From: Clostridia bacterium
GTDB lineage: Bacteria; Bacillota; Clostridia; Oscillospirales; CAG-272
Reading direction: 5' to 3'
Assembly: GCA_017457465.1 (NCBI GenBank)
Contig: JAFTHJ010000253.1
Location: 1 to 40,145 of the forward strand
DNA length: 40,145 bases
Shown here: one piece after another, positions 1,100 to 26,500 of the stretch
Layout: every line of letters begins with the position of its first letter
Position numbering within the stretch: position 1 is the stretch's first letter
Translations under genes and position numbers: made by a program
Notes under the pieces: model-generated
Databases searched by the model: none
Told to the model about the DNA's origin: nothing
What the model saw: only the letters and a program-made list of their open reading frames with translations

Positions 1100-2200
1100 G
1101 TTAAAAAAAGTGCAAAAATTTTTTCAATTCAGGGGTTTTAAGCGGTCAAAAGGCGGTCAATATGGGCTTGGAACAGGTCTGCGGAGGAATACCAATCAAA
1201 GATTTGCCTCGGGTAATTGTTTATCCATTTCTCCAATTTTCGTATCTCGGCAGGGGTAACAGGATCGAAATTACATCCTTTCGGGTAATGCCTGCGCACC
1301 ATCTTGTTTTGATTTTCGTTAGATCCTCGCTCCCAGGATGAGTACGGATGGCAGTAGTAAGTCTTTGTACGCGCTTTCTTGCCTCGCATACTCATCTCGA
1401 TACCTACAACGTCTGAAAACTCCGTGCCGTTATCTACCGTGATCGTTTGGAAAAGCACGCGGAAAAGAGCCGAGCCGTATTCTCTCTCTATACTGTTCAG
1501 CGCCTTTACCACACTATCTGCGGTCTTATCCTTCATTTTCCTTATTATCTCATATCGCGTAAGGCGCTCTGTTAAAACAAGCAGAGTGCCTTTCGTGCCT
1601 TTTGCGCCCTCTACGCAATCCATCTCCCAATGACCGAAAGAGATCCGGGCAGAGATCTCGGGCGGTCTTTTCTCGATGCTCGTGCCGCGCTGCGCCTTTT
1701 TCGCCTTTACTGTTCTATACTTAGTATCCCTCTTGTTTCTCTTTACGGGTAGGTTTTCATTTGTAATAGTGAGGAATACCCCTTGTTCTATGTATCTATA
1801 CAGAGTGGGCTTCGTTACGGTGGTAGCAAATTCAAGCCCCTTGCGCTTTATCTCACCGAGCACCGCGCCGGGAGAATATTTGTGCTCTCTAATCATATAC
1901 TCAATGTATTCCGCGTATGCCATATCGTTGCCGATCTTCAAGCCCGCGCCCTTTGCCCGCAAGAAGTCCTGCTTTTTCTTCTCCGAAATATCAGGGCTAT
2001 ACCTCATTTCTCTTGTATAGTCGCTATTCAGATGCTCGTACTGACCTCTTTTAAGCTCACGGTATATGGTAGAATAGTGAACGCCAAGCAGCTCCGCAAT
2101 CTTCTTTATCGGGATGCCGACCTTCCGCCACGCCGCAATATTAAGTCTGTCGCTCCAGGTAAGTGTTTTGTAATGCCTCATAATATCATCCTCCTAAAAT
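1100..2200 (-). mobile_element. IS30-family insertion sequence (boundaries approximate, inverted repeats not resolved)
   Basis: Single transposase ORF 1138-2181. I could not identify convincing terminal inverted repeats or a target duplication by eye. Confidence 0.45.
1138..2181 (-). CDS. IS30-family transposase
   Basis: 347 aa with an AGGAGG RBS. N-terminal HTH IKKIAELLGVHYSTIYRELKRGQ. DDE-type core motifs FGHWEMDCVEG, ITVDNGTEFSD and CHPYSSWERGSNEN are typical of IS30 transposases. Confidence 0.85.
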   Translation of the reverse strand: MRHYKTLTWSDRLNIAAWRKVGIPIKKIAELLGVHYSTIYRELKRGQYEHLNSDYTREMRYSPDISEKKKQDFLRAKGAGLKIGNDMAYAEYIEYMIREHKYSPGAVLGEIKRKGLEFATTVTKPTLYRYIEQGVFLTITNENLPVKRNKRDTKYRTVKAKKAQRGTSIEKRPPEISARISFGHWEMDCVEGAKGTKGTLLVLTERLTRYEIIRKMKDKTADSVVKALNSIEREYGSALFRVLFQTITVDNGTEFSDVVGIEMSMRGKKARTKTYYCHPYSSWERGSNENQNKMVRRHYPKGCNFDPVTPAEIRKLEKWINNYPRQIFDWYSSADLFQAHIDRLLTA

Positions 2201-2205
2201 ACAAG

Positions 2206-2237
2206 AGAGGGCTTACCCTATCAGAGTATAGCCCTCT
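2206..2237 (-). terminator. hairpin terminator downstream of the RHH gene
   Basis: Perfect 8-bp stem AGAGGGCT (2206-2213) / AGCCCTCT (2230-2237), starting 5 nt after the stop at 2242-2244. U-rich sequence follows on both strands. Confidence 0.45.
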
Positions 2238-2241
2238 TTTC

Positions 2242-2436
2242 TTAGTCTGCCAAAAAATTCTCTATTGCCTTCTTGATGATCTGCGCCTGCGGAATCCCCA
2301 GCTCAGCGCACTTTGCCTTGAAAGCTTCTCCCATCTCTTTAGGAACGGCGCATTTTACCTCCGCATAAGTCTTTTTGTTATATCGCGCCTTCACCGCAGA
2401 GGAGGTTTTAGTTTTTCTTTTGGTTTCCATAGCCAT
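2242..2436 (-). CDS. small ribbon-helix-helix (Arc/CopG-like) DNA-binding protein
   Basis: 64 aa. Basic N-terminus, then a beta-strand-like YAEVKCAVPKEM followed by two short helices (GEAFKAKCAELGIPQAQIIKKAIENFL). GAGGGAG RBS and consensus promoter upstream. Confidence 0.6.
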   Translation of the reverse strand: MAMETKRKTKTSSAVKARYNKKTYAEVKCAVPKEMGEAFKAKCAELGIPQAQIIKKAIENFLAD

Positions 2437-2456
2437 ACTCCCTCTCGTTTTTTCAC

Positions 2457-2485
2457 ATTATAACATACTACGCCAAGTATGTCAA
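2457..2485 (-). promoter_or_regulatory. consensus sigma-70 promoter driving the RHH gene
   Basis: On the minus strand: TTGACA (2485-2480), exactly 17-nt spacer, TATAAT (2462-2457). The RHH ATG lies ~20 nt downstream. Confidence 0.65.
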
Positions 2486-2528
2486 GGGGTTTCGGCAACA
2501 TTTTTTGCAGTTTTTTGCGCTTAAAATA

Positions 2529-2557
2529 TTGAATTATTTTAATAATTATGATATACT
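2529..2557 (+). promoter_or_regulatory. candidate extended -10 promoter, divergent from the RHH promoter
   Basis: TTGAAT (2529-2534), 17-nt spacer ending in TGa, TATACT (2552-2557). Confidence 0.45.
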
Positions 2558-2703
2558 ATTAGCACCACACAAAATTTTATATTTTAGCGCTATTGGAAGT
2601 GCCTATATCTTTTTTACTCTCGGTAAAAATGTAGGCTCTCTTTTTCGCATTTCTGATAGTGCTGAAATTTTGTGTGGTAGCAAAACAGAGCTTGCGTTTT
2701 TCG

Positions 2704-2740
2704 GTGCGTGTAGCTTTGTGTTGCACGCACTTTTTATTTT
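2704..2740 (+). terminator. intrinsic-terminator-like hairpin abutting the RBS of ORF 2753-3289
   Basis: Stem GTGCGTG (2704-2710) / CACGCAC (2724-2730), followed by TTTTTATTTT (2731-2740). GGAGAG RBS at 2741-2746. Confidence 0.5.
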
Positions 2741-2752
2741 GGAGAGTAGCCT

Positions 2753-3289
2753 ATGGATTACGCCGCTATAATATTTATTACCGGGCTTGTTGTAGCTGTT
2801 ATCACTTGGCGCTATATGGATAGAAAACTCGATCAAGAAACCGCGCAACTATCGAAGGCTCTTGACGAAGCCAGGCAAAATAACGCAGCCGCATACGCCG
2901 AGAGGCAAGAGGAAAAGGCATTGATGCTTAGAGAAGCATTAAAAAATGCCGTTGTATTTACTTATAACACAGACGGGCGCATACCTGGTCTATCGGTAGA
3001 AAAAGCGGTTGACCTTATATATGTTTACCGTTTTTCACTTGGAATATGCACTATTTCCGATATTGATATTGCAGGAATCCGCGATATTATTAAAAAGGCT
3101 CTTGCAGCAGAAAAAGACAAAGAGGCAATTTTCAACTACTTGGCTCAACACAATATAAGCTGGAACGCAGAATACTCTTACGAGCTTGTGTTTGGAGATT
3201 TTCTTCCTCTTACGAACAGAAAAGAGGAAACCGTTAAGGCGGTTATAGAGAAGGCTCGTGCCTCCCATCCTATACCGTTTTCAACATAA
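2753..3289 (+). CDS. hypothetical membrane-anchored protein
   Basis: 178 aa with a GGAGAG RBS. N-terminal hydrophobic helix AAIIFITGLVVAVITW. It is the only convincing plus-strand gene inside the phage-like region. No family recognised. Confidence 0.55.
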   Translation: MDYAAIIFITGLVVAVITWRYMDRKLDQETAQLSKALDEARQNNAAAYAERQEEKALMLREALKNAVVFTYNTDGRIPGLSVEKAVDLIYVYRFSLGICTISDIDIAGIRDIIKKALAAEKDKEAIFNYLAQHNISWNAEYSYELVFGDFLPLTNRKEETVKAVIEKARASHPIPFST

Positions 3290-3394
3290 TTTTCTCTCTG
3301 AACGGACCAACCTTGCGCGCGGGCGCGTGCGGTCAGACCAACAAACAAATTTTATATTTGTATTTTATATTTAGTTTTGTTTTGTTTAGTTTTA

Positions 3395-3490
3395 TTTGCA
3401 TAATTTTGCATAGCATTTGCATAGCATAAGCAGTGCATTTGGATTGCAATTCCTTTGCATTTGCATAGCATTTGCATAGCATTTGCATAA
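3395..3490. repeat. iteron-like array of TTTGCAT(AGCA) repeats
   Basis: At least 7 copies of (T)TTGCAT starting at 3395, 3405, 3416, 3454, 3461, 3471 and 3482, mostly 10-11 bp apart (GCATAGCATTT tandem units). Flanked by the AT-rich tract 3340-3394. Confidence 0.65.
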
Positions 3491-3690
3491 GCAAAAAGCC
3501 TTGATTTTCAAGGGGTTTTAGGGTGCAACCTATTTTCAGTAACAAATCACCAATTATTATTTTTGTGAGCAGGCGCAACGCAGAATTAAATATTAACAAC
3601 TATTAACAAAAAATGAATAAAAGTTCATAAATGTTTTTGATGCAAGTGCTTCACTTACCGATTTTTACCATTTTTGAGTTTTCAACAATG

Positions 3691-3727
3691 AAAAAGGCAA
3701 GGATTTTTAACGATCCCTGCCTTTTTA
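3691..3727. terminator. bidirectional rho-independent terminator
   Basis: Stem AGGCAAGGAT (3695-3704) / ATCCCTGCCT (3713-3722) with one mismatch. AAAAA lies on one side and TTTTTAT on the other. It sits immediately after the stop of ORF 3730-4704. Confidence 0.7.
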
Positions 3728-3729
3728 TA

Positions 3730-4704
3730 TTATGATAAGGAAGCTTTTTCCTCTGTTTCCTCCACTTCAGGAGGCGCTTTTTCAGGCTCTACAAGGGGCG
3801 TATCGTCCATATACTGAATAGCCTGCCGCATCAGATCTACCTGGTCGCTCATATAGTTTACGGTGTCAAAAACGATATTCTCATAGCCGAATTTATATCC
3901 GCCAAAGCCGTTCATTACTACCGCAAGAAGCTTGAGCATCACCGAGGCGAAGATTACCCAGGTAGGCTCAATAACTACATCGAGCACGATCATACTCATA
4001 ACGAGCGCTACAAGGAACGTTGTAACAAATTTCACACCAAAATTGAGATACTTCTTAGATTCAGGCTTCCAGCCGAGAGGAGAGCGCCTGTAAGAGCCTC
4101 TGCCTCGCTTCATTATCATTTCAGGTGTGAGCTTGATAGGCTTTACTGCGTTTGCCTTTTTAATGGCATCGCGCTGCGGCTTGGAAAGATCTGCCCGGGC
4201 ATCTACATCCTCCTCGCTCAGTGAGATATATTCCTTCAGATAATGCTCGTAGGATATACCTACAACGGCGAGAATTTCAAGACGGGAATTGCGCAGCTCC
4301 TCCTTTACAAAGTGCCGGCAAAATTCAGGCAAGCGAGCCTGCAATTTACGGTCCACAATGTTCTTTTTATAGGTTTCAAAGGTATTCAGCGCATCGGTAT
4401 ATAGTTTGCTCGCTAAGCCTGTTCTCATACCGCTATCAGAGCAGTTGATATACATAGAGTAGGAGCAGAAAAGGAGCAGGAAGAAATCAAGCCCCAGCGC
4501 CGCCATCTCCTCAAAGGAAGTAAGGCTTATATCGGTGGTAACGATAACTACCACTGCAAACATAAGGAATACACCTACAAAGATGCCTGCGTAATTAAGA
4601 AAGCCCTTTTTGAGCTTATTCTTTACCTGGTTTTCAGCAACAACGCTCTCCTCAAATTTAGATATTGCGGGCTGAGGAGAGATGCCCGAAGAAATCTTTT
4701 CCAT
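3730..4704 (-). CDS. hypothetical polytopic membrane protein
   Basis: 324 aa with four hydrophobic segments: YAGIFVGVFLMFAVVVIVTT, LGLDFFLLLFCSYSMY, FVTTFLVALVMSMIVLDVV and WVIFASVMLKLLAVVMNGF. Last gene of the minus-strand operon. Confidence 0.6.
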   Translation of the reverse strand: MEKISSGISPQPAISKFEESVVAENQVKNKLKKGFLNYAGIFVGVFLMFAVVVIVTTDISLTSFEEMAALGLDFFLLLFCSYSMYINCSDSGMRTGLASKLYTDALNTFETYKKNIVDRKLQARLPEFCRHFVKEELRNSRLEILAVVGISYEHYLKEYISLSEEDVDARADLSKPQRDAIKKANAVKPIKLTPEMIMKRGRGSYRRSPLGWKPESKKYLNFGVKFVTTFLVALVMSMIVLDVVIEPTWVIFASVMLKLLAVVMNGFGGYKFGYENIVFDTVNYMSDQVDLMRQAIQYMDDTPLVEPEKAPPEVEETEEKASLS

Positions 4705-6257: not shown

Positions 6258-6386
6258 TTACGAATACTTGATGCCCGTAATTTCAAGAAATTCCGCAGCA
6301 GTGATCTTGCGCTTCTTAACGGCGTTTCTCACCATATCGAGCGTCCAAAAACCCTGCTCGTAATACTTTTTGATCTTATCAAACAT
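6258..6386 (-). CDS. XkdX-like small phage protein
   Basis: 42-aa ORF not in the supplied track: MFDKIKKYYEQGFWTLDMVRNAVKKRKITAAEFLEITGIKYS. It matches the XkdX pattern (KxYY..G.W....V...V.K..IT..EY.EITG). Translationally coupled on both sides. Confidence 0.6.
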   Translation of the reverse strand: MFDKIKKYYEQGFWTLDMVRNAVKKRKITAAEFLEITGIKYS

Positions 6387-6543
6387 TTTCTCCGCCCTCC
6401 GTCATTTCTTCGTTTTCAGGCTCAGGGATTTCAACATCACACATCATAGCAAGGTAGTCAGTGTGTGCCTTGTTCTTCGCGGATTCTGCTCTGAGGTTGT
6501 CAAGCTCGCGGCGCTCCGCAGGCGTTAAATTGCTTTTTGCCAT
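6382..6543 (-). CDS. small hypothetical protein
   Basis: 53-aa ORF (MAKSNLTPAERRELDNLRAES...). Starts 7 nt after the RT stop, and its stop overlaps the XkdX-like ATG (ATGTTTGA). Confidence 0.4.
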
Positions 6544-6549
6544 TTTTCT

Positions 6550-7623
6550 TTACCTCCATAGACTTTTGTAATAGGCGCAATAGCGCTGAAGTAGCTTAAA
6601 GGAATTGCCTTTGCGCAGGTGATCTAACTGACACTTAAAGCACTCATCAACCTTAGATCTCGGCATCTCGCCGCGCTTGACCTTCTGCACCATACGAAAG
6701 AGCTTCTTTCTGTTCCGCTTTACTGCTTCCGAAGAAACGAGCATTACGACCTTACCCGTAGAGGTAAGCAGATAATCGAAGCCCAGGAAGGTGAGCTTGT
6801 CTGTAACGTGTTGTATGCGTGTTTTACGCGGGTGTAGCTCAAAGCCGCCTTTGGCAAGGAATTTTTGAATTTCCGCCCGGCAATACTCCAAGTAGTTCTG
6901 ATCCTCGTGTATCATAATAAAATCATCCATATAGCGCAGATAGAATTTTATTCTGAGCTTTTCCTTTATAAAGTGGTCGAGTGGACTTAGCACGGAGATC
7001 CCTGCTATCTGAATGAGCTGGCTACCGGGGTTATAGCCGACCTCTCCCTTGTACTGCTCCCGAAGCACCCTCTCCGTTCTCTCATAGATTTCGGGCGGAA
7101 GCCTCTTAGCAAAACAAGCCTCGGCAACATCGTGCCGCATATTAGGGTAATATCCGTGTATATCGCACTTCAAAACATAGCCATTCGTGCCGTGCTTGCG
7201 GTAGAATTTTTGTAAAAACTCTTTCAAGCGGGTGCGGGCTAAGTCTGTGCCTTTGCCTTCCTGGCAGGCAAGATTATCGAAGATGAATTGCTTTGACATA
7301 AGCGGGTATATAACGTTGTCGTTCATACTGCGCTGATATACGCGATCCCGAAACGATATACTCACTGCCTCGCGCTTCTTCGGATAGGTTATAGTAAATT
7401 CCTTTGGAGGTCTTGCGGTATATGTACCGTCTTTTAATTCCTTCTCAAGCTTTAGCGTTTGCTCAATGCCGTTAAGGTGAAAGTGAGCAACAGAATCCTT
7501 CCATATAACGTTTTTCTTGCATTTTAGCATAGATTCGTAAAGCGCCTCAAAGCCTATAACACTCTCCAGGAGAGCAGCACCTTCGTAATTATAATTAGTT
7601 TCCACGATGTATATAGCTCCCAA
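6550..7623 (-). CDS. DGR reverse transcriptase
   Basis: 357 aa. Catalytic YLRYMDDFIMI box and NPGSQLIQIAGISVL (the SQ motif characteristic of DGR RTs). No maturase X, endonuclease or RNase H extension. Sits 128 nt downstream of the TR. The start codon is uncertain (TTG at 7623 or GTG a few codons in). Confidence 0.9.
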   Translation of the reverse strand: MGAIYIVETNYNYEGAALLESVIGFEALYESMLKCKKNVIWKDSVAHFHLNGIEQTLKLEKELKDGTYTARPPKEFTITYPKKREAVSISFRDRVYQRSMNDNVIYPLMSKQFIFDNLACQEGKGTDLARTRLKEFLQKFYRKHGTNGYVLKCDIHGYYPNMRHDVAEACFAKRLPPEIYERTERVLREQYKGEVGYNPGSQLIQIAGISVLSPLDHFIKEKLRIKFYLRYMDDFIMIHEDQNYLEYCRAEIQKFLAKGGFELHPRKTRIQHVTDKLTFLGFDYLLTSTGKVVMLVSSEAVKRNRKKLFRMVQKVKRGEMPRSKVDECFKCQLDHLRKGNSFKLLQRYCAYYKSLWR

Positions 7624-7751
7624 ATTCTCATAAAGAAGTTGCTTGCATCACCATAGTATTGTTCGCCCACACGGGCAGGGATTTCGGCTCTTTGTATTAT
7701 ATATTTCGGAGCACCACTCTTACAGAGCAGCCTTTTCGTCCTACGATATAA

Positions 7752-7875
7752 ACAAACGGGGGCAAAGCGATTCGCGTTGTTCGCGTTGTTGTTGTTGAGG
7801 TAGCCTGTCGTGTTCACATTCCAAGTGTTGTACGAGTTGTTGCGATTCGCACTCCGCAGGCGCACGTTCTGCGTT
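7752..7875 (-). repeat. DGR template repeat (TR)
   Basis: 124 bp aligning without gaps to 8391-8514. All 18 differences are at TR adenines on the minus (coding) strand. It translates to an Asn-rich AAY tract: RLRSANRNNSYNTWNVNTTGYLNNNNANNANRFAPVC. Confidence 0.9.
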
Positions 7876-7899
7876 CAGCCTACATCCCTATTACGAGCA

Positions 7900-8313
7900 C
7901 TACGGCAATTTTGCGTAGCGCTTATAATCAGATTCTTTCCACGCGCGGAGGAGGTTTCTGACACCGATAGTCATTTCTCCCCAATACTTTACTCTCGTAA
8001 GCTTGAGATGAAATACCTTCTGCGCCATCTGCATCAGCGCCAAGAGATTATTACAATTCCTTGCCGCCTTTTCCTGCAAGCGCCGCCTCTCCGCAAAATC
8101 TTCGGCATTTCTCACGAGAATATTGTTTGCGGTCCAGGCATCCATATAGATAGCGAGGGCTGCGCCGTTGATTTTGTCGGTCAACGAGCCTTGATACTCG
8201 GGAAGAAATATCTTTTTATTTGCGGTGATGGTTATGGTATATGTTGCAAGGTTAAGGGCTTTCTCAAATACTTCAAGCTTGCCCGTTCCTCTTAGTCCTT
8301 CGGGTACTGCCAT
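7900..8313 (-). CDS. avd: DGR accessory variability determinant (Avd, four-helix-bundle family)
   Basis: 137 aa, all-helical and basic, with C-terminal YWGEMTIGVRNLLRAWKESDYKRY. Strong AGGAGG RBS. Positioned between the target gene and the TR, as in BPP-1. Confidence 0.8.
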   Translation of the reverse strand: MAVPEGLRGTGKLEVFEKALNLATYTITITANKKIFLPEYQGSLTDKINGAALAIYMDAWTANNILVRNAEDFAERRRLQEKAARNCNNLLALMQMAQKVFHLKLTRVKYWGEMTIGVRNLLRAWKESDYKRYAKLP

Positions 8314-8344
8314 TTCGGCATATCCTCCTTCTTTAGTTCTTTTT

Positions 8345-8371
8345 ATCTCCTGCCGCGTGGCAGCAGGAGAT
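8345..8371 (-). promoter_or_regulatory. hairpin/cruciform-forming inverted repeat just 3' of the VR
   Basis: Perfect 9-bp arms ATCTCCTGC (8345-8353) / GCAGGAGAT (8363-8371). Lies ~20 nt past the VR end and 8 nt past the stop codon. No U-tract follows on the transcribed strand. Confidence 0.5.
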
Positions 8372-8378
8372 TATCAGA

Positions 8379-9473
8379 TTAGCAAATGACACAAACGGGG
8401 GCAAAGCGATTCGCGAAGTACGCGGTGTAGTTGCTGAGGGAGCCCGTCGCGTTCACATTCCAAGCGCTGGACGAGTAGTAGCGATACGCACTCCGCAGGC
8501 GCACGCTCTGCGCCGAGGTTTTTGCGTTGATAGCGTAGTGGATATACTCATTGTAAATAGAAGGGTGATAGGATGCCGGGGATGTCAACCCGAGCGCACG
8601 CTTCCAATACTCAAAGTATTCGCCCTCTGCACCTTTGAGCTGCGGCACTCCGTACATCTGCTCAAGGGAAGGAAGGAAGAACGTATCATACGTATCCTCT
8701 CTATCTCCAAGATCCTTATCGGTAACGGTGTTGAGCGCCGTAGTAACCTTTACAGGCTGGATGATGGAAAGGAAGTCCTCTCCGAAGCCCGTCATAAAGC
8801 CTGCCTTAGTAGCAAGCTGCTCAGGGGGCATATCGCCAAGATGCTGAGCTTCCCACCATTCATTTACACCCTTCTTGCTATTGAGGTACTGACGGAGAGC
8901 AGAGTGCGACCATCTGTTATAGCCGTATCTGACTACGTTGCCGCTGGTATCCTTTATAGCAGTGTGGTAGTAGGTATCGTTGGTAGGAATAGCCGCGCCT
9001 ACGGTGTAATCCGTGCCCTCTACGAGAAGCTTGTACGCGGTTTCGCCCTTATCGTTGGTGTATGCGGTGTAATACGAGTAATCGCTTCCAAAGATGCCCT
9101 CGGTTGCTACCTCGTTCTCCTTAGCATCAAACTGCACTCCGAAGGGGGAGCAGTAATGCCACTGAAGATACATACCCGGAACGACAGAGCCATCTTTCAG
9201 GGTAACGTTTCCGAAGTGTACCACATTAAGCGGTACATCGTAGGTAATATCCGCTGCAACATCCTTCCAGGGAACGATGATCTGATCTCCGATATTGAAA
9301 AGCTTAGGAGCAAGCCCCTTTCTCACAATATCGTGAATGTAGCCAAGATCGGTGATATTTGCATCAACATCACCCTTAGCCATAGCCGACAGAAGCGCGT
9401 TGCCGAGGTCCAGCGCATCTGCAATTCTTTTGCCCGTTTCATCGAGCATCATAGGTTTTGTAACCTGGCTCAT
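8379..9473 (-). CDS. DGR target protein, putative receptor-binding tail-fibre protein with C-terminal variable region
   Basis: 364 aa from ATG 9473 (GAGGAGG RBS; the track's upstream start at 9491 lacks one). The VR occupies the last ~40 codons: ...VRLRSAYRYYSSSAWNVNATGSLSNYTAYFANRFAPVCVIC. Sits at the end of the tail-fibre module. Confidence 0.85.
   Translation of the reverse strand: MSQVTKPMMLDETGKRIADALDLGNALLSAMAKGDVDANITDLGYIHDIVRKGLAPKLFNIGDQIIVPWKDVAADITYDVPLNVVHFGNVTLKDGSVVPGMYLQWHYCSPFGVQFDAKENEVATEGIFGSDYSYYTAYTNDKGETAYKLLVEGTDYTVGAAIPTNDTYYHTAIKDTSGNVVRYGYNRWSHSALRQYLNSKKGVNEWWEAQHLGDMPPEQLATKAGFMTGFGEDFLSIIQPVKVTTALNTVTDKDLGDREDTYDTFFLPSLEQMYGVPQLKGAEGEYFEYWKRALGLTSPASYHPSIYNEYIHYAINAKTSAQSVRLRSAYRYYSSSAWNVNATGSLSNYTAYFANRFAPVCVIC
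8391..8514 (-). repeat. DGR variable repeat (VR)
   Basis: Cognate of TR 7752-7875. Mismatches at plus-strand positions 8416, 8417, 8420, 8425, 8429, 8434, 8440, 8445, 8450, 8465, 8467, 8470, 8477, 8480, 8486, 8506, 8513 and 8514. In every case TR has T on the plus strand, i.e. A on the coding strand. Confidence 0.9.
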
Positions 9474-9474
9474 T

Positions 9475-9837
9475 TTAGGTATCCTCCTCAAATGTAATAC
9501 AAAGTTCGCCGTTTACTACGGTGATGCCAATATCGAGAGAGGCTACCGCAGCCTCCGCGCCTGCCTTTGCGGCTTCCGCTGCCGCGCGTGCATCTTCTGC
9601 AAGTTTCTTAGCGTTCTCCGCAGCAGTTTTGAGCGCGGCAATATCGCCGTAATTAACGACATAAGGCAAATCGGCAAGCGGTGTCTTGCCATCACCTATT
9701 TTGATAGCATATCTGCCATCATTCTGCTTGACGTAAACAACCTCGTGCTCGTAAGGGGTAACTGCGCCATAGGCTGCCATTTCCTCAAGAGTGCACGCAA
9801 GTTCTTTACGCCTGGTATAGCCGGGATTTACTGCCAT
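9475..9837 (-). CDS. tail-fibre protein with Mtd-N / hyaluronidase-N-like motif
   Basis: 120 aa. The pattern RRKELACTLEEMAAYGAVTPYEHEVVYVKQNDGRYAIKIGDGKTPLADLPYV resembles the ...KIGDG.T.W..LPY N-terminal fibre motif. Ala-rich coiled coil follows. Its stop lies 1 nt before the target ATG. Confidence 0.45.
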   Translation of the reverse strand: MAVNPGYTRRKELACTLEEMAAYGAVTPYEHEVVYVKQNDGRYAIKIGDGKTPLADLPYVVNYGDIAALKTAAENAKKLAEDARAAAEAAKAGAEAAVASLDIGITVVNGELCITFEEDT

Positions 9838-9850
9838 TGTTTTAACCTCC

Positions 9851-11068
9851 TTAGCTTAATCCTGCGATCTGTGCGAGTGTTGGAGTGGTGAGAAGAAGCG
9901 CATCCGCAAGAGAAGAAATGGGCGGAGCTTCCTGGAGGTCAAACATCCTCTCACGGATTCCGTTCATATATTCCACAAGCCTTGAAGTCATACTGTCAAT
10001 AGGGATGCGGATCTCTCCTCCGTTTGCAAGAACGAGCACCGCCGCCTCAGCTCCCGGTGTATCGTCAAAATAAGAGTTTTCAGATACAATAAGCTCAAGC
10101 GGAAGGTCAACACTATCGGTAGAGCCGTCCGTTGCCGTGAAGGTGAGCACGCCCGTTTCTGCGTTGTAGCTGATAGAGGTAAACGCCTTCTCCTCCAGCG
10201 CTCTTAGTCTGTTGGAGAGCACAAGCGCAAGCTTTTCTTCGGATACAGATCCTGCTGCGAGCTTTGCGCCCGTTACGGCTGCATCGGCAAGCTTCTCGGT
10301 GGTAATGTTCTGATCCGCGATCTTCTCCGTAGAAACGGCGGCAGGGGCAATTTTTTCGTTTGTAACGGCACTTCCTGCTATCTTAGGCGTTGTAACACTA
10401 ACCGGGGCAAGCTTCGCCGTTGTAACGGCTTCCTGCGCAAGCTTAGGGGTAGTAACGTTCTCATCCGCAAGCTTAGGGGTGGTAACGGCTGCATCGTGAA
10501 TTTTAGGCGTTGTTACCGCGCCGTCAACTATGCGAGAGGTATTAACGTTGAGGTCAATGCTCTGTGCGCTCAGGACCTCTCCCGCCTCGTTGTAGAGGCG
10601 GAGGGTTACAATATGCGTAGAGGCATCCGTTTCAACCTTCATTGTAGCGCCGCAAGTCTGCCATATATCCTCAATGCTTTCGTAGTGCTCGGCAATAGCC
10701 TGGGCTATATTGTTGATAATAGCCTGCAACGTTTGCGTTGTAGTGATAGAGGCAGAAGGGTTGAGGCGCAGGATTTTGTTTGCAAAATCACCGCTTCTAA
10801 AGCTATCCACAAGATCCTTGAGGCTTCCCACTCCGTAATAGTCCAAAGGGATGCGGATATAGTCTGCCGCTTCGTTAGAAGCAAGCACGCTCTGTAATTC
10901 GTTGATTTTCTCCGCAAGGAAGGATGCAAGCTTATCAAACCACAGTTTCAACTGCGTTGAAGAAAGACCTCCTACGCCATACTGAGCGTTGGCGTTTGGT
11001 CTATCCGCGAGGGATTGCACTCCCTTTGAGGAGATCTGATTTTTTGAAATATTTACAAGCTTCTGCAT
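9851..11068 (-). CDS. tail fibre protein with decapeptide repeats
   Basis: 405 aa. Residues 181-280 are ten tandem copies of x-x-x-A-V-T-T-P-K-[IL]. Confidence 0.65.
   Translation of the reverse strand: MQKLVNISKNQISSKGVQSLADRPNANAQYGVGGLSSTQLKLWFDKLASFLAEKINELQSVLASNEAADYIRIPLDYYGVGSLKDLVDSFRSGDFANKILRLNPSASITTTQTLQAIINNIAQAIAEHYESIEDIWQTCGATMKVETDASTHIVTLRLYNEAGEVLSAQSIDLNVNTSRIVDGAVTTPKIHDAAVTTPKLADENVTTPKLAQEAVTTAKLAPVSVTTPKIAGSAVTNEKIAPAAVSTEKIADQNITTEKLADAAVTGAKLAAGSVSEEKLALVLSNRLRALEEKAFTSISYNAETGVLTFTATDGSTDSVDLPLELIVSENSYFDDTPGAEAAVLVLANGGEIRIPIDSMTSRLVEYMNGIRERMFDLQEAPPISSLADALLLTTPTLAQIAGLS
10229..10528 (-). repeat. 10 x 30-bp in-frame tandem repeat inside the fibre gene
   Basis: Encodes VDGAVTTPKI HDAAVTTPKL ADENVTTPKL AQEAVTTAKL APVSVTTPKI AGSAVTNEKI APAAVSTEKI ADQNITTEKL ADAAVTGAKL AAGSVSEEKL. 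Confidence 0.75.
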
Positions 11069-17538: not shown

Positions 17539-20500
17539 TTAAGAGGGTGTTTTTAACATAATTCTGCCGTTTCTTACCTCGAATCCGCACAGGGCGGCAA
17601 GCTCTGCCTTCTGCTGCTTATTCAGTTTACCCATCCTGAGTATGTAACGAAGCAGGAGCTTCTTGGCTCTCTCGGCACTCAATCCGCGCAGATCTCCATC
17701 CTTCAGGGCATAGCCCTTTGCGCATATTAGAAGAAGCTTCTGCTCGCTTGATACGTCAAGCTGGTTGATAGCCGCAACAACCTTTTTCCGTTTACTGCCG
17801 CTTATAGCATTTCCGAGCTTGTCTGTATCTGAGGTCAAGCCCTTTGTAGCAACGTGCAGCATAGCGAGGTTTTCAGCGCCTATAACGGAGGAAATAAGCA
17901 CCGCGTTGCCCCTATCAATACCGAGCGCATCTTCAAGCGCCATATTGTAGTGAAGCTCGTACACGTAGTTTACCGCTTCCGCCTTCATCTCCTCGGAGAG
18001 CTTTTTGTATTTCTCTTTGGTAAAGAGCTTTTCAAGGGAAGCCTGGGAAGCAGAGTAGCTGCCTCTTACGGCTGCCTGTTGTGCCTCGTTCAGCTCGTAC
18101 TCTGCGCCCTCTACCGTTATGGACTTTGGAGCGCTCTTAGGAAGCACTTTGTACCCCTTAGCTGAGAGGGAGTAAAGCTCGTTATGCACGGCTTCGCTCA
18201 TATCCACGCCCATACGCTCATTGTAAAGCAGGCTGAGAATAAAGCTTGCCATCTCCACATCTTCATTCTCGATAGCTTTGTAAAAATCGTTTTTGTAATT
18301 CTTCTCGTAGAAAACATTGTCAATTTTGTACGCGGCTTCCGGGTTGAAGCGTTTTGTCAAACCGTACAGAACGTTATAAACGTTACGCACAGGCAAGCCC
18401 GTAATCTGTCCTACTGCGTAGGAAACCTTTTTAATGCGCGAAGCATAGTCTTGCTGCGTTGCTTTATTCTCGCAGATAAGACCTACAAGATCAACGATGC
18501 TCTTTACGCCGCTTATTAAATCATTAACGGCGGAGTAGGCATAGTTGTCAATATCGTAGCCTTCAGCAAAGGTGGCGTAAATGTCTTTGAAGATAGGCAA
18601 GCCGCCGAAAAGGTTGCCTATTGCATCTACAAGCATCGTCTGCGCTACCGTTTCATCCTCCTTCTGCTCCTTGTCATAAAGCCAGCGGAACAGTTGCGCA
18701 ATACCTGCCATAAATACCGCCGTCAACACAAGCGCCGTTGTAGCCTTGCGGGCATTTCTCTTGGCTACTTTTAGCCTTGCCCTCAGCTCTGCCTTAACAT
18801 CGGGATCTGTTGCTGCTTTGATTTTAGAGTGAAGCACAGAGATTTCACCAAACGCATCAATAACTCTGCCTATAACCTTCATACTATCCGAGGTAAACAT
18901 TGTTACGGTGCGCAGGATCTCGTTGCTCGATCTCATAGCAGCAGAGCGCTCGGTTGCAATAGAGTTTTGCTGGGTTTCCTGAATAACTTTCCTGAGAAGC
19001 TTTCCTGCCTCTATTTTGTTAGCTTCTGTACCCACCTTAGCGCCGCCATTCTTTTCTACCTGGACCTGACAAGCGCCGAATACGCGGCAAACTACAAATC
19101 TATCCATCATACCAATAGGCTGCATAAGCACATCAGAAAATTTACCCACTTTCTGTATAGCTCTGCCTGCCTTGCTACGAGCCTTGCCTTGCTTATCGAG
19201 AACACCCTGTGCCATAGCGGCAGTGTTTTCGTATCTACGAAGCTCTGCGAGGGGGCAGTATTGATCTATTCCCTCAGAGGAGAGGAATACGCCTCGCGTG
19301 ATACTGTCAGCATCCAGGATGCTTGACGAAGCAAAGATAGACGAAAGCTGAGTAAACCATACTTTAGGATTAGCGCCGAGCTGGAATTTTGCATAATTTC
19401 CACGAATAAGCCCCAGCGCTGCCATTCCTTCGCTTGAACCTGCTGGGATACCCTGAATATCAGAGATCAGCTTCATAAAATACTTGTTACCCTTAGCCCA
19501 TACGTTCTCGCTTGCGGTACGCACGCTTATCGGGTGATTTCGGTTGCCCGAGGTATCCATATTGTAAAGGCGGTTAAAGGTTTCTATTGCAGGGGAGAGG
19601 TACGCATACTGACATACCGCGTGAATATGCCGCCTGAATCGTGCATCTGCACTCTCAATAGCGATCTCCTGCTTCGCGCCCTTAACTATATCCTTGTTGA
19701 AAGAGGAATTTGTTACGCGGTCATATTCCGCCTGCGCATCCGAGGTATCAATATTCTGTGCCGTGTATGCACGTCTGATAGGATAGTAATAGTCGGTGCT
19801 GGCGTTGGTAAAGCCGAGCCTCTGCATATCGCGGTCAGCCTTCAGCTTGCGTGCATCCTCGTTGTATCCTTTCTCAAGGATAGCCATATACTGACGGTCC
19901 GCATCGGTGAAGTGCTTTGCGATTTCTGCCTGCTGCGCGGTAATTGCCGCTTCAAGATCCGTTTCGCTGATATGCTCATCGGGCAAGAAGCCAGGCACTC
20001 TCACAACCTTGCCTTCAAGGTTTTTGAACGGGAAGCCGTTTATAGCGATACCCGCCCAGGCGTGCTTACGCTTCATAGTCATATAAAGGTCGATGAGCTG
20101 AATTTTCGGGATCTTCTGCCCTCTGTATTCTATAAGCTCCTCGGAAGCCTTTTCAATGTACTTTTTATTGCTGCGCAAAAACTCATCATATTCGCGCATA
20201 ATACGCATTTCCGCTATCTCGGCATCGGTTGCCGCCTCGCGCAGATCCTCAAACATCTCGGTATAAAATCCGCGCTCGTAGTAATCCATTCTGCGCACAA
20301 GCGTAGCAGGATCGCTGAACATCTCCGCGTACCAAGAGCCTGAGAGCTTTGCGAATAAGCCTACCTTTAAGCCTTCGTTTGCCTGGGCTATGCCTATATA
20401 TCTCTTTGCCTCGGGGAGCGCTTCAATCATTTTGCCGTTGCGGAACACTTTGCCATAATTCTCAACGAATTTCACGAAGTAGGACATAACATCATACATC

Positions 20501-23500
20501 GTAAGTAGCTCCTCTTTGGAGAAGCCCTTTTTACCTTCGGAGAGGGATTCCAGCATATCTGCAACACTCTGCACGTAAAGCCCGGGGTTTTTATCATCGA
20601 CAAACTCAAGCAGCGGGTTGTCTTTGCGATACCACTGCAAAAGCTCGCCCATAATTTTGCGCGTGCCGGATACGTTCAGATTTCCTCTAAACTGTATCTT
20701 AGCAAGCTTTTCTATGGAATTTTTGAAAAGCTCACTGTCAAACTGCGTTGCGTTTGCAAACGTGCCGAGCCTAAGATCTTTCATCTTCTGTGCCTGGCTC
20801 ATAAGCAAACCGAGGATGCGATCCCTGCCTTTGATTCTATCGTGCTCAGCCTTCCAAAATTCTGCTCTTGTGGAGTAGTATTCTATTCTGCCTTCCACAA
20901 GCCTTGAGAACTTGCTTTGCTCGCCCTCAGTTTCAAAGGCTCTCATAATATCAGCTTCAATGCCTGAAACGATTGCAAGCATATCCGCATCGGTTGCTTC
21001 CCAATAAGCAGAGATCCACTTATCTTTTACATCCTCGCGTGCCCTCTCGTACATAGCATCCAGCTCCATAAAGGCTTCTACCGGGTGCATATCTTCAAGC
21101 TCACTCATTCCGGGCATCTCGCGGGCAATATCTACCGCAAACACATCCATAGGAACGCGACTTGTGCCTTTCTTGCCCTTGTATCCCCATCTACCGAGGA
21201 TCTTTTTCAAGCCCGCCTTGTCGGCAATATGGCGTATCTCGGAGAGATATTCAGGGTGAAAAGATATTTTGCCGATATAGGTGCTGAGGTAGGAGAGCCT
21301 TTCCTGCGCTTCCATAACGTCAGGGTTTTCAACCTTTGCCTCCGTAACCATCGTAGCAACAATAAACTCCGCCATATCGTGAGCGAAGGTCTGCCGCGAT
21401 TCCAGGTCAGTGCAATCGTTAAAGCCTTGCCATAGAGCATCTGCCAGCTCCGCCCTCGTCTTTGCAGTGAGGTCCGATGTACCAAACATTCTGCCGATAA
21501 CTTCAAGCGCCTTACCTTTGGAGAACACCTGATAATGCGTATTGTTGGCAATAGTTTTCTTCATCTCGCCTATGGTGAGAGTAGAAGCGCCGGGCTTCCT
21601 CGGTATGCCTCTCTCAAGCACTGCCTCAATATCGAAGCTTGCACCGTCTGCATCCGCGTTCATATCAATATCACCGAAGATAGCATCAAGATCCTCATCA
21701 CCTGTAAGGGCATATCTTGTATCAGGGTTGCTGGAGGGGGCAGTATTGGAGGTAAGCTTTGCCTGCTCGGACCTGAAAATAACAGATTCCGTATCGAGTA
21801 TAAAGCCATCATACTCCGTACCGTTTACCTTGTTGAAAAGCTCTACCGCCTCAACAAGATCGCCTATCGCGGTCAGGGATACATCATAGAGCATAGCAAA
21901 ATCGCTCTTGCCCTCGTACACGCTGCGCAGCACTTCGGCTACATCGTATGTACCGTAGTTTTCAATGCTATAATCCTCGTTTTCCGCCACTGCATTGAGA
22001 AATTTTCTCATCTGCATACGGGAAATTGTCTTTTTCGTAGCAGAGAGGGGATTTGTAATATTGAGATAGTAGCCGCGCACCGTGCCGTAGTGCCGCGCCT
22101 GGTCTGCGCTATTTGTGAAATAAAAGCCCCTGCCGTAGAGATTGGAAGCCTTAGACTTCTTCTTATCGAAGGTGAAGAACTCCTCGGGAGCGCCCTGATA
22201 CATCACCTGAAGCCTGCCCTCGCTATCAAGCTGCTTGGAGGCATCAAAATACTTCCGTTGGTCGCTTGTAAGCTCTGCGCCGGTGCTATCGCTCTCAGGA
22301 AGGGCGTAGCGTATGTCGGGAGAGGCTGAAGGTGTTTTGTTCGATGCAAGCTTTATTTGATTCGCCTCAAACGCTACTATCTCATCTCCCGTAGTGCTCT
22401 GTATAACACCATCGTACCCCCTGCGGCGTAGCTCCTCATTGAATTGCTTTCCTGCACGCTGCATAAAGTATTCAGGAAGATGCTGCTCGATATAGCTATA
22501 TCTTTTGTCTGAAAGATAAGTAATAGCAGCGGAGAGCCTGTATTTTTCTGCCTGTTCCCGCGTTTTGAATCTGCCGCGAGGATAGTAGCTTTCAAAATTG
22601 TGCTCGCCGTATTCCTCCATAGCATCAAGAATACTATCGTACTGCTCCTGAGTGATAGTACCATCTTTCAGGAGATACGAAGCCCACGAAGCTGAGGTAA
22701 TATACTCATCTTTGATAATTTTTTTGATCTCTGATGGTATATCAAGAGCCTCCACGTTGTCAGATACTTTATATCCAAAATATTCTGTATCTCCTTCGTA
22801 AATGCTCTCAACAGTAAGGCGTTCACTGTTGTATATGCTTTCAATTTCATCCGCCAGCTCTATGAAGTTTTTGCTTTGGGAACTTTCTGCATTTCCTTCG
22901 CCGTCAAAGCCTTCCACAACATCTACCGTAAGTGTTTTTGCAATCTCGGGGAACTTCCTTGCCATATTTATTACGAAGCTTGCGAAATCAAAATAAATAT
23001 CGCCGTCTGCAACGCCATCATATTGCCCCATTTCTTCAGAGAAGTTAAATGGGTTTTTGATATTCAAGTAGCATTTGAGCACCCGCCTTCCGTAAGTACC
23101 CGCCTCGTACTCAGAGAACGCAAAGTAGAAGCCCCTGCCATACCAGCCGGCATCGTTTGCTGCGCCTATAAGTTTTTTATCAAACTCATAGAACTCGCCA
23201 CTGTTTGTGCCGTGATATACAGGGAGAAGGCTACCCTCGGGGGATATTTCAGCATATCCATCCTTTTCCACGGCTCTTATTTGGCTTTCGGCAAAAAACT
23301 CTCTCTGCTCGGGGGAGAGGGGGTTGCCTTCGCTATCGGTTTCGGGTAGAGCAAACCTTATATCCCTGCTATATGGGCTAAATCTCTTGCTGAGAGGGAT
23401 AATTTTGCCCGCATCGTCATAGGTGATGGGATCTGCCGATTTTATCTGTTCAGAGTGGAAGGCAACAATTTGTACGCTTTTTTTACCTTCTCCAATAGTA

Positions 23501-26500
23501 TCGGCATCAAACCGGGTATCCTTTATGATTATTCCGTCATACCCTTGCGAAACAAGGCTTTCTTTGTATTTTTTGACAACATCAGCACCATTTTCAAGCC
23601 TCATTCCCAATCCGCCAACGTTTGCATCTTCAGCGGTTTTTCCCGCCAATTTGTATATTTCTGTTTTGAATTGCTCATAGGAATCTGTGAAGATCAAATC
23701 GCCTCGTTTTGCCCGCAAGCTCTCTATCATAACTTTACAAGAAACAAGCTCATCGGCAATTTTCTGTGCTTCCAAAAATGTCTTTTCGTCAACGTTTTGC
23801 GAATTTTTAGGCGCTGTTTTTCCGTTCGTTCTGATGTATTCGCTTACCGACCACCTTGCAAGCAAGCCAAGCTCATTAAGTTCCTCGTACAAAGATTTAT
23901 ACTTTTCTTCGGCATCCGCAATTTCTTCATCGACTTTTTTTATGGCTTCGGAATCCATTTCTGTGGTAGTAAACACTTTCGGGTTTTCAATCTTCAGCCA
24001 GCTTTCATATACTTGTGGATTGTTTTCATCAGTTCCCCAGGTTTCGCTTACCCAATTTTCCGCGCCTTTCCTGGTAGCGCCAAACCAAAAACCGATTTTA
24101 GATTCTATGCCACCATAAAGCCCGGATTTTCCTTCGTCAAAAACAGTGAATGAATTGTGTGAGCCGTGATACCCCTTAACTGTATATCCTGCCTTCTTTG
24201 CCGCTTCATCGACCATAGCCTGCACAGTATCCATATCTCCGCTTTCAACGGCGGCAAGATATGCCTCATCTGTCAGCGCAAAACGCTTTTTCTGAGGTTT
24301 TTTTGAAGAATTTTCGCCAGGGGTATTGCTTTTTTTCTCAGAATGAGTTATAATAAGCTTGTTCTCAGCATCTCCTAACGGAGCCGGGGAGGCGGATTCG
24401 TCCGTCATACTCTGTTGAGGACTTTTTTCTTTTTCGATAAACTTTATCTCATAAAGAAACTGTTTTGATCCCTTATCCCTCACCACCACTTCTATATCAA
24501 AGCCATCATAAGAGCCTTTGAAGCGGTGCATAGCGACAACACCTTTTTTTGCCTCATTCTCCAAGCCGTGTATCTCCGTATTAGATCCTTCGTAGGTGCA
24601 GCTTCTAAGTATCTCGGCAAAATGCGGGATAGCTTTAATTCTCGCATTTACCTCGCGCATATTTCTGCCCTTGTTGGAGAATATGTTTTTATTCTGAGTG
24701 AATTTATCCGTGAGGATTCTAATGCTTTTTCCGCCCGCATCAAGTCTGATGCCGAGCGTGCCAAGCTTAACAAGGTCATTTTTGAGCCTTTCAGCTTTAC
24801 CTTTTGATAAGGCAAACCTTGTATCCGTATCAACATCCGTGTTTGTTACAATGGGTGCTTCCTCGTCATTATCGCCTGTAACGTGCATATAATCGGTTTC
24901 TGTGTTCGTTACGGGCATTTTTTTCGCTCCTGCGCCCTCTAACGCAATCGAAAGAGCGTTGTTACCCTGGTTGCGCTCCGCAAGGCTCTCAAAGAGCGCT
25001 TTGTACTGTCTTACGAATTTACGAGCCTGCGCCGACAAGCCCTGAACAGAGGAATATTCCCGGGCGGATTTACGGAAGAAGGAAAGCACCTTATCTGCGA
25101 AAGAAGGCTCTTTTGAGAGAATATAAGCCCAGGCATCCGCGCTTCTGAAAACTTCCTCTGCGCCCGCTGCGGCAACCTCCTCCTCGGAGATAGCCTGAGC
25201 TACGGAAGAATCCGTGCCAAGCTTCTTATAGAACTTCTTGTATCTCTTGCGCACTTCCTGCGCTTTTTCGGGGTTGCTTCTCTCCAGGAGATCTCTTGCC
25301 TCTCTAAAGAGCTGCAAAGCGCGTTTATCGCCGTCAGCAAAAAGCTTATGGAACATCTCGTGCCCGAGGATAACTTCATACGTTCTCGCTTCGGAGTTGT
25401 TAGGATTTACATAGATAGTATTGCCGCTTATAGCGCCATCTCCAAACGCCCTCTCGGCATCGAAGATAACGTTTAAGCCCGATTTTGCCGCAACCTTTGC
25501 GAACACAAGAGTTTCAGCATCAGCAAGACCGTGCGCACGCGCCTGCCTTACCGTCATTCTGATAGCCGCCTTGTTAGGCTCGCTCAAAGAATTGTAATCG
25601 GGGATATTCTCAGCCGCATACGCATCTATCTCGGTTGTTTCTCTTGCAAGGTTGGTTTCCTCGGTGAACTGCATTGATTTTGCGGTGGTAGTCTGCCCGG
25701 AAGTCCAAAACCTTTTGAGGACCTGGTTTACATCCTGCACCGAGAGGGCGCGGCTAATATTTCCTCCGTCATAGTCATAGAGGCGGTATGTATCGCCTTC
25801 CTTGAAGATAGCCATATTAACTGAGCCGTCCTCGCTGGTATAGCGGTAAACACCGTCCTGCATATTCTTGCGCAGCAGGTGAGGCAGGGGCTTTGCACTC
25901 TCTGCGCCCTGCTCAAGAGCGCGGCGCATACGTTTGGATTGTTCTGCGAACTCGGATATACCGCCGTTAGCATTAAATTCTGCTACTCTCGTTCTCAGCT
26001 CGTCTATCGTTACCTTAGACCAATCCTCGATACCGAGAGCTTGACCGAGCGCCTGCATTTCTTCAGGCTTGCCCTTTTCAATAAGGCGGTTGAGATCTGC
26101 CGTATTCGCAAGATTTTCACCGTTAAGCATAGCCTCAGCCATTCTGCGCGTATCCATCATAATACCGCCTGTTGCCTCTGCTACTGCAAGCGTTGCAAGG
26201 GTGGAGTTTTCGGAGAGGGCTTTTCTGAGCGACTTGGCAAAGGTTTTTGCCTCTGCATCCGTCAGCGTGCCAGCCTTAGCCTTCTCTACAAGGGAAGCAT
26301 CAATGCCTGAAAGAATTTGCTCGGCAGTTACTCTGATAGGCTTGCCGTTGGCATCCGTCATACCGAAAGCAGCATATCTCTGCGCTGCGTTCTCCGCATT
26401 GAATACAAGCCCTCTTGCGCTTCTCTCGATATAGGGATGAAGGTGAGCTATAACGCTCGTTCTCTTGAGCTTACCCAGGTACATCAAGTCTTTTGCCTTG

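Follow-up and report, generated by a model that had tools for sequence, protein, structure and literature searches.

The DNA considered here, hereafter the window, is a 40,145-nucleotide (nt) contig (JAFTHJ010000253.1) from a Clostridia bacterium assembly (GCA_017457465.1), and the minus strand at positions 6550-9473 very likely holds a complete and naturally active diversity-generating retroelement (DGR), carried by an uncultivated gut phage that probably infects Clostridia. Outside the immune systems of vertebrates, DGRs are the only natural systems known to direct hypermutation at particular proteins, and they are abundant in gut phages. The assignment draws on the anatomy of the locus, on adenine-specific differences between its template repeat (TR) and variable repeat (VR), on the homology of its reverse transcriptase (RT) and its accessory protein Avd, on diversification of the VR alongside a conserved TR, on the copying of non-adenine changes from TR to VR, and on conserved RNA elements. 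The DGR is very probably active. An earlier sequence-only reading of the window had described a minus-strand order of target, avd, TR and RT, as found in Bordetella phage BPP-1, and this synteny is real. The coordinates of the individual features are collected in Table 1.

The template and variable repeats

Compared on the coding strand, the TR (7752-7875) and the VR (8391-8514) align over 124 nt with no gaps and differ at exactly 18 positions, all of which (18/18) are adenines in the TR. Eight of the differences are A to G, seven are A to T and three are A to C. With a base composition of 38 A, 38 C, 28 G and 20 T in the 124-nt TR, the probability that 18 randomly placed mismatches would all land on adenines is 1.6e-11. 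The sequence-only reading had counted 18 adenine-confined mismatches in an ungapped alignment by hand; the computational recount bears this out and found no mismatch at any other base, and the translations quoted for the two repeats were correct on re-translation.

Repeat detection, which is independent of this alignment, returns a 122-nt core (7752-7873 and 8391-8512) with 87% identity. The outermost two mismatches, AA at TR 7875/7874 and GG at VR 8514/8513, are constant throughout the seven VR alleles and the 15 cluster proteins compared (see below), and because they do not vary among any of the recovered VR alleles they are most likely flanking sequence. The edge positions therefore probably lie outside the true repeat, which is then 122 nt long and contains 16 mismatches over 36 adenines, with every one of the 16 at a TR adenine.

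In the reading frame of the VR, the TR contains 21 variable codons, 15 of which are of the form AAY. By computation, none of the 21 can be converted into a stop codon by adenine mutagenesis, and together they give a theoretical repertoire of ~5e20 protein variants. The VR is found at the 3' end of a coding gene and finishes 12 nt short of the stop codon of the target. Scanning the 40-kb window for the TR pattern, with the adenine positions left free to vary, did not reveal a second or remote VR, giving one VR in total. An open reading frame (ORF) of 103 amino acids (aa) that runs through the TR on the minus strand at 7554-7865 (MRLRSANRNNSYN...) was rejected as spurious; it is not called as a gene in any related contig and is regarded as an artefact because the TR keeps the reading frame of the VR.

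Table 1. Features of the window, with positions numbered on the forward strand.
Feature	Position	Strand	Details
IS30-like transposase	1138-2181	minus	phrog_4646 1.6e-131; HTH_38 plus rve; edge of window
DGR RT	6550-7623	minus	357 aa from TTG 7623, or 351 aa from GTG 7605; RVT_1, phrog_1423
Spacer (Sp) of DGR RNA, TR to RT	7606-7751	minus	146 nt to GTG 7605, 128 nt to TTG 7623
Predicted priming core of spacer	7660-7695	minus	ACAAA 7691-7695; motif AGCCG-N3-CCCTG-hairpin(7664-7677)-CGAACA 7660-7689
Stem-loop, candidate Avd-binding	7708-7741	minus	inner 8-bp stem 7724-7731:7713-7720; outer helix 7739-7741:7708-7710
TR	7752-7873 (core)	minus	non-coding; 36 adenines; from repeat detection and base count
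avd, accessory variability determinant	7900-8313	minus	137 aa, basic, isoelectric point (pI) 9.8; phrog_3206
Hairpin/cruciform, candidate target-recognition element	8345-8371	minus	12-bp stem (one G.T), CAC loop, no T-run
DGR target gene	8379-9473	minus	364 aa, ATG 9473 with GAGGAGG ribosome-binding site upstream; Pfam DUF6273
VR	8391-8512 (core, 122 nt)	minus	encodes last ~40 target residues; lies within 8391-8514 of the sequence-only reading
ORF between target and tail fibre	9475-9837		120 aa
Tail-fibre protein	9851-11068	minus	phrog_28766 'tail fiber protein' 1.1e-32 plus 12 other families, mostly tail/tail fibre
Giant protein	17539-27678	minus	3379 aa; ART-PolyVal (ADP-ribosyltransferase in polyvalent proteins) aa 1818-1979; between portal region and head genes

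Natural alleles of the variable repeat

Contigs of the same phage from other samples were recovered by exact-sequence look-up of Avd, the RT and several target variants. At the DNA level seven distinct VR alleles are found, each of which equals its own TR except at adenines, barring two single-base exceptions (in contigs L082 and L171). The window shares one TR sequence with contigs L081, L083-L087, L170 and L171 while the VR differs, and other lineages carry a few TR changes. Between contig L083 and the window, 26 of 1892 aligned bases are different, 23 of them inside the 124-bp VR and only three outside, a pattern that points to very recent diversification. In the lineage represented by L174-176, all three of the informative non-adenine positions at which its TR departs from that of the window are reproduced in the cognate VR. 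This copying is the natural equivalent of a TR-to-VR marker transfer experiment and, as natural variation between assemblies, fits a one-way transfer.

The same distribution is seen among the target proteins. The 90% cluster to which the target belongs holds 108 distinct sequences, with the variation concentrated at adenine-containing codons. In 15 cluster proteins, VR codons with an adenine in position 1 or 2 have a column entropy of 1.74 bits on average, as against 0.13 at the other VR codons and 0.09 over the rest of the protein. The expectation in the sequence-only reading that polymorphism would sit at TR-adenine positions is in this way confirmed across assemblies of independent samples, save for the two single-base exceptions. 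More generally, several 90%-identity clusters of the target family hold very many distinct sequences (1424 in P0082, 174 in P0027 and 108 in P0002), which is the expected footprint of DGR hypervariation and could serve as a database-level signal for active DGR targets.

The reverse transcriptase and Avd

The RT matches Pfam RVT_1 (1.7e-14) and phrog_1423 (3.9e-72), and its best solved relative is 8ub7 (1.2e-15), whose sequence matches BPP-1 Brt. Direct comparison with BPP-1 Brt by BLASTP gives 26% identity (E 8e-20). Gene calls for the RT are of either 351 or 357 aa; the GTG start, which has GGGAG upstream, is more likely than the TTG start. Motif conservation was followed in an alignment of 82 related RTs plus the BPP-1 enzyme (bRT). 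The YMDD tetrapeptide pointed out in the sequence-only reading is present at aa 231-234 (window 6922-6933), as part of an RYMDD that is nearly invariant in the alignment. Motif 4 is PGSQLIQ (aa 199-205, window 7009-7029), in which the glycine is shared by 81 of the 82 sequences and the glutamine by all 82. The canonical (I/L/V)GxxxSQ aligns with this heptapeptide, such that the lineage has GxxxIQ (GSQLIQ here and GSQMVQ in close relatives), with the serine replaced by isoleucine or valine. The 'DGR-type GSQ motif' that accompanied YMDD in the same claim is out of register, a chance adjacency four residues upstream of the diagnostic glutamine, and has to be given up. Motif 4 also has a proline at the position of bRT I181, which is reportedly one of two residues that modulate adenine mutagenesis. 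Despite the atypical motif 4, the natural alleles are still strongly adenine-mutagenised.

The closest public RTs are those of the human faecal phage contig MT835491.1, with 54% identity, and of IMG/VR UViG_3300045988_157054 (L001), with 66% identity. Adenine-specific TR/VR pairs were picked up by a crude detector at 40 of 80 IMG/VR loci that contain related RTs (35-66% identity), and because of this recurrence the RT clade is considered to be consistently DGR-associated. Homology, motifs and the TR/VR pairs of the relatives, the last of which stand in for a formal phylogeny, place the RT in the DGR clade. Some public records annotate relatives of the RT as 'retron-type RNA-directed DNA polymerase'.

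The product of the neighbouring gene matches phrog_3206, 'Avd protein of DGR', at 3.9e-9, and together with its pI this agrees with the basic 137-aa Avd described in the sequence-only reading. Of its homologues from related loci, all 19 match phrog_3206 (best 1.4e-28), nine match Pfam bAvd (PF22296) and seven match PF05635. Since direct comparisons with BPP-1 and with the PDB are negative (see below), membership of the Avd family rests on the PHROG and Pfam profiles together with genomic context, and the gene at 7900-8313 is assigned as the Avd of the DGR through a homology that is transitive, by way of these homologues.

RNA and DNA elements around the repeats

The spacer between the TR and the RT contains several elements that resemble those of the BPP-1 DGR RNA. 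The motif at 7660-7689 has one match in the window against 0.04 expected, and there is likewise one match in the BPP-1 locus (L089, 2804-2831), which is inside the spacer and starts exactly at Sp position 56. The form common to both phages is AGCCG-N3-8-CCTG-short hairpin-GAACA, and the arms of the hairpin vary in sequence between relatives. The 2'-OH of Sp A56 primes complementary DNA (cDNA) synthesis in BPP-1 (PMC6182149), and A7689 is predicted to correspond to this priming adenosine.

The ACAAA that precedes the motif can pair with TTTGT at the TR 3' end (7752-7756), and across 12 loci 68.5% of these positions are paired as compared with 57% in shuffles, with none of 500 shuffles reaching the observed value. 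Covariation lends moderate support to a putative TR:Sp duplex across the 12 loci. Taken with the motif, the priming nucleotide is predicted to lie within 7689-7691. An alternative register, in which Sp CAAAG pairs with CTTTG in the TR (TR positions 109-113), is unsupported across the relatives, and only ACAAA/TTTGT is supported.

Around 20 nt 3' of the TR is a stem-loop in which 93% of the alignment cells are paired and seven of the eight pairs show compensatory changes; none of 500 shuffles reach its value and slid controls are much lower. It matches an Avd-binding stem-loop that has been described immediately 3' of the TR for 207 DGRs (bioRxiv 10.1101/2023.10.23.563531). The spacer thus appears to contain the RNA elements of a DGR, namely a priming motif, a TR:Sp duplex and a TR-proximal stem-loop, and the motif and stem-loop favour the view that cis-priming is conserved.

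On the other side of avd, a hairpin is positioned ~20 nt 3' of the VR and 8 nt after the target stop codon. It has a folding energy of -11.9 kcal/mol (z -2.2) and was also detected as an inverted repeat. GC-rich hairpins of unrelated sequence occupy the equivalent place in 11 of 14 relatives. The hairpin/cruciform of BPP-1 is needed for efficient homing, and elements of this type typically have a 7-10 bp stem and a 4-nt GRNA loop and lie 4-34 bp from the VR (PMC3240598). Between the target stop and the hairpin a sequence TAATC...(A)ATC recurs (window 8372-8390, with equivalents in L005, L006, L008, L014, L024, L026 and L034), and the relatives that share it have hairpins of unrelated sequence. 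The recurrence may reflect a conserved motif of the target site or of regulation.

The target protein

The 364-aa target proposed in the sequence-only reading stands, with its ATG at 9473 preceded by a ribosome-binding site. In the structural model the protein has a helical N-terminus of low confidence, a beta-sandwich at approximately aa 60-170 and a DUF6273 domain at aa 187-360, which ends in the VR. The AlphaFold predicted local distance difference test (pLDDT) is 91 for the full-length target and 89 for the C-terminal domain. The target belongs to DUF6273, as the Pfam profile (PF19789) matches aa 187-360 at 1.4e-12 with 48.2 bits against a gathering cut-off of 23.5, and nearly all homologues in the family of 1929 proteins are already annotated with PF19789. 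DUF6273 is a published DGR target domain in the phages of gut Clostridia (PMC10743442, PMC11792537, bioRxiv 10.1101/2024.10.15.618418).

A sequence search of the PDB with the target gave no match. By Foldseek the sole significant match in the PDB is 9qa6, the N-terminal DUF6273 domain of the immunoglobulin A (IgA) peptidase of Thomasclavelia ramosa, with E 6e-9 over 338 columns for the full target and 4e-7 for the domain alone. The C-type-lectin fold that the sequence-only reading had expected at the C-terminus was not confirmed by these Foldseek searches, in which this DUF6273 domain was the only significant structure returned. No function was assigned to the domain in the paper on the peptidase (9qa6). 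The match ties a phage DGR target to a module of a secreted gut-bacterial protease. Structural matches in BFVD are to DUF6273 proteins of gut viromes, some of which are annotated as tail-collar fibre or receptor-binding protein, and the target has no Ig-like repeats. From the position of the gene and the analogy with BPP-1, it is a reasonable inference that the target may act in receptor binding and tropism switching.

Alternative explanations

A number of observations weigh against the view that the locus is a complete and active DGR. The evidence for activity consists of natural differences between assemblies of independent samples. The adenine rule is broken in the VR of L171 by a T to G change (GGCTAC to GGCGCC) beside a mutated adenine. 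Avd has no match in the PDB, by sequence search or by profile, and hhalign finds no similarity between its profile and BPP-1 Avd, nor between the profile of the target and Mtd. When the full target and its C-terminal domain were compared with the PDB by Foldseek, no Mtd, TvpA or FGE fold was returned and C-lectin folds appeared only as non-significant fragments. The hairpin fits a BPP-1-type element in position and nature but departs from it in loop size, with a 3-nt CAC loop as opposed to the 4-nt GRNA consensus and a stem of 12 bp, and there is no obvious hairpin between the VR and avd in the closest three IMG/VR relatives (L001-L003, RT 64-66% identical, ~4270-4320). The TR:Sp duplex is 2 nt from the priming adenosine predicted by the motif, and a slid control (-2) nearly equals its covariation score. 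Lastly, the VR of L087 is 127 nt long (L087:3106-3233) against 124 nt for its own TR (L087:3748-3872), which is identical to that of the window.

The additional codon in L087 is placed inside an (AAC)4 run, giving DTGSV where the others have four residues. Five variable codons are present here in lineages that are more distant, and L087 looks mosaic. It is conceivable, if rather improbable, that the three extra nucleotides arose from slippage of the RT on the AAC repeat and that this DGR lineage makes length as well as substitution variants, in which case the atypical motif 4, with its GxxxIQ and the proline at the I181 position, may have a part in the length change. DGRs could then vary the length of a loop in a binding site. 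Simpler possibilities are that the allele is a mosaic derived from a lineage whose TR has (AAC)5, or that the extra codon arose in assembly.

If the locus were a genuine DGR of which the copy in this genome is now inactive, both the differences between TR and VR and the diversity of alleles would be left over from earlier activity or from recombination among phage lineages. L081 and L082, which come from other samples, carry the VR allele of the window, and the TR of L082 has drifted by one base (A to C at window 7813) that its own VR does not share. Some phages are known to keep their targets after loss of the DGR (bioRxiv 10.1101/2024.10.15.618418), and activity is deduced here from comparison of assemblies. 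Nevertheless, there are no frameshifts and each part of the cassette (RT, Avd, TR, spacer motifs and hairpin) is intact, near-identical backbones carry unrelated VR alleles, as in the comparison with L083, and recombination cannot yield differences from the cognate TR that are restricted to adenines. An inactive copy is very improbable. The idea that the RT is instead that of a different retroelement, for example a group II intron, a retron or a defence-type system, and that the 122-nt repeat is an ordinary duplication or gene-conversion tract, is effectively refuted. It can call upon weak NCBIfam matches, to the group II intron RT/maturase TIGR04416 (72.9 bits, cut-off 300), to Drt3a and Drt5 and to retron St85 (27 bits, cut-off 235), with 39 bits against a cut-off of 200 for another of these matches, and upon the 'retron-type' labels on relatives. 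These scores are far under the curated cut-offs, though, and a scan of 6300-9600 against Rfam at E up to 1 returned no family, with neither an intron nor an msr/msd, so that membership of the group II introns or retrons was rejected. Moreover, bRT is the best solved relative, an Avd is adjacent, and the improbable adenine-only pattern recurs in relatives.

More weight attaches to the proposal, unlikely though it is, that the DGR is active and that the DUF6273 protein binds some other ligand (mucus, immunoglobulin or glycans of the host, for instance), in line with proposals for Hoc-like or 'tentaclin' targets, with no switching of tropism. The target domain matches the PHROG family 'Hoc-like head decoration' at 2.4e-13, which also counts against a receptor-binding role, and the only solved DUF6273 domain is that of the secreted gut-bacterial IgA peptidase, to which no function is assigned. 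Set against this are the location of the gene, two downstream of the tail fibre and upstream of XkdX, which is the position of mtd in BPP-1, the lack of Ig-like repeats and the tail-collar fibre and receptor-binding annotations among the BFVD matches.

Proposed mechanism

For an active DGR with a receptor-binding target, a mechanism can be outlined that borrows from BPP-1 where priming takes place, what the hairpin does, and the link to receptor binding with tropism switching. A transcript that runs from the 3' part of avd through the TR and the spacer would fold round a complex of the RT and Avd. Synthesis of cDNA would be cis-primed from the spacer, at or near the predicted A7689, opposite the 3' end of the TR. 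The RT would be faithful at C, G and U and would misincorporate opposite adenines. The mutagenised cDNA would replace the VR (8391-8512), guided by the GC-rich 3' end at which the VR is identical and by the hairpin at 8345-8371. The last ~40 residues of the target would thereby take up to ~5e20 forms, and it is likely that such diversification would change what the virion binds.

Comparison with known systems

The order in BPP-1 is tail fibre, mtd with the VR, avd, TR, a 144-nt spacer, brt, small ORFs and endolysin. On the minus strand of the window the order is the same, with tail fibre, a small ORF, the target with its VR, the hairpin, avd, TR, spacer, RT and small ORFs that include XkdX, and genes of the lysis region come next in both. 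The two loci also share a homologous RT, a hairpin 3' of the VR, which here is a candidate element, and the spacer motif AGCCG...CCTG-hairpin-GAACA; the spacer is ~140 nt in both, and the repeats are of similar length (122 nt here and 134 nt in BPP-1). They differ in motif 4 of the RT (GSQLIQ as opposed to GSLTSQ, with proline at the bRT I181 position) and in the hairpin, which has a 12-bp stem and a CAC loop here but 8 bp and GAAA in BPP-1. Neither by sequence nor by profile can similarity be detected between Avd and bAvd or between the target and Mtd, and the target domain is DUF6273 rather than of the Mtd type. The host is a probable Gram-positive gut anaerobe, in contrast to Bordetella.

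Other close systems are the Faecalibacterium phages and prophages Toutatis, Lelie, Roos, Pioen and CP11, which have a DUF6273 target with a C-terminal VR, as found here (PMC11792537; bioRxiv 10.1101/2024.10.15.618418), and nd4_tgt2 and nd12_tgt2, which are small single-domain DUF6273 targets (PMC10743442). Both the Faecalibacterium phages and nd4/nd12 come from the human gut and are associated with Bacillota, like the phage in the window. Their RTs have only 27-36% identity to the one described here (nd12 36%, Toutatis and Brigit 30%, Lelie 29%), and because of this the window is placed in a different RT sub-lineage from the published DUF6273-targeting DGRs. Whereas several of the Faecalibacterium and nd phages have two targets, the 40-kb window has one VR, and its backbone also differs, with a 3379-aa ART-PolyVal protein and a terminase that is at most 54% identical to those of GenBank phages. 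At the locus L001 the layout is likewise VR-avd-TR-RT, the repeat is adenine-specific and the same stem-loop follows the TR, and L001-L003 differ in having no hairpin 3' of the VR. Annotation and literature searches found no description of MT835491.1 or L001, both of which are unannotated. The suggestion in the sequence-only reading that this might be an undescribed lineage is weakly favoured by RT identities of at most 54% to GenBank phages and at most 66% to IMG/VR, and is countered by the DUF6273-targeting DGRs already published from phages of gut Clostridia.

The locus adds no new principle, as it is of a well-known kind and both its target domain and its ecological setting are already in the literature. 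It does provide clean natural evidence of activity across human samples in a compact single-target cassette of ~2.9 kb, and its RNA elements can be aligned to those of BPP-1 despite a phylum-level distance between the hosts. It is a possible model from a Gram-positive host for DGR biochemistry and a possible marker for strain-level dynamics of phage and host in gut metagenomes.

Phage genome and host

The tail-fibre gene is found two genes upstream of the target and contains 30-nt tandem repeats (10257-10516), which encode a 10-residue repeat (xxAVTTPKLA-like) with a weak match to DUF5907. The window also encodes a terminase, a portal protein, a weak match to a major head protein, and XkdX. 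The giant polyvalent protein mentioned in the sequence-only reading was found as the 3379-aa ORF with its ART-PolyVal domain. The terminase has at most 54% identity to unannotated faecal phage contigs among the GenBank phages and 34% to that of a Bacillus phage, and IMG/VR contains no exact match to the 3' junction of the VR, placing the phage outside IMG/VR. The closest RTs in species-representative genomes are in metagenome-assembled genomes of Ruminococcus, Blautia and other Clostridia, at no more than 58% identity. Together these comparisons point to an uncultivated gut phage lineage, the host of which is probably, if tentatively, to be sought within the Clostridia. The IS30-like transposase near the end of the window is next to a stretch of lower GC content at 2001-4000 (0.40 against ~0.48) and may represent an insertion sequence inside the phage genome.

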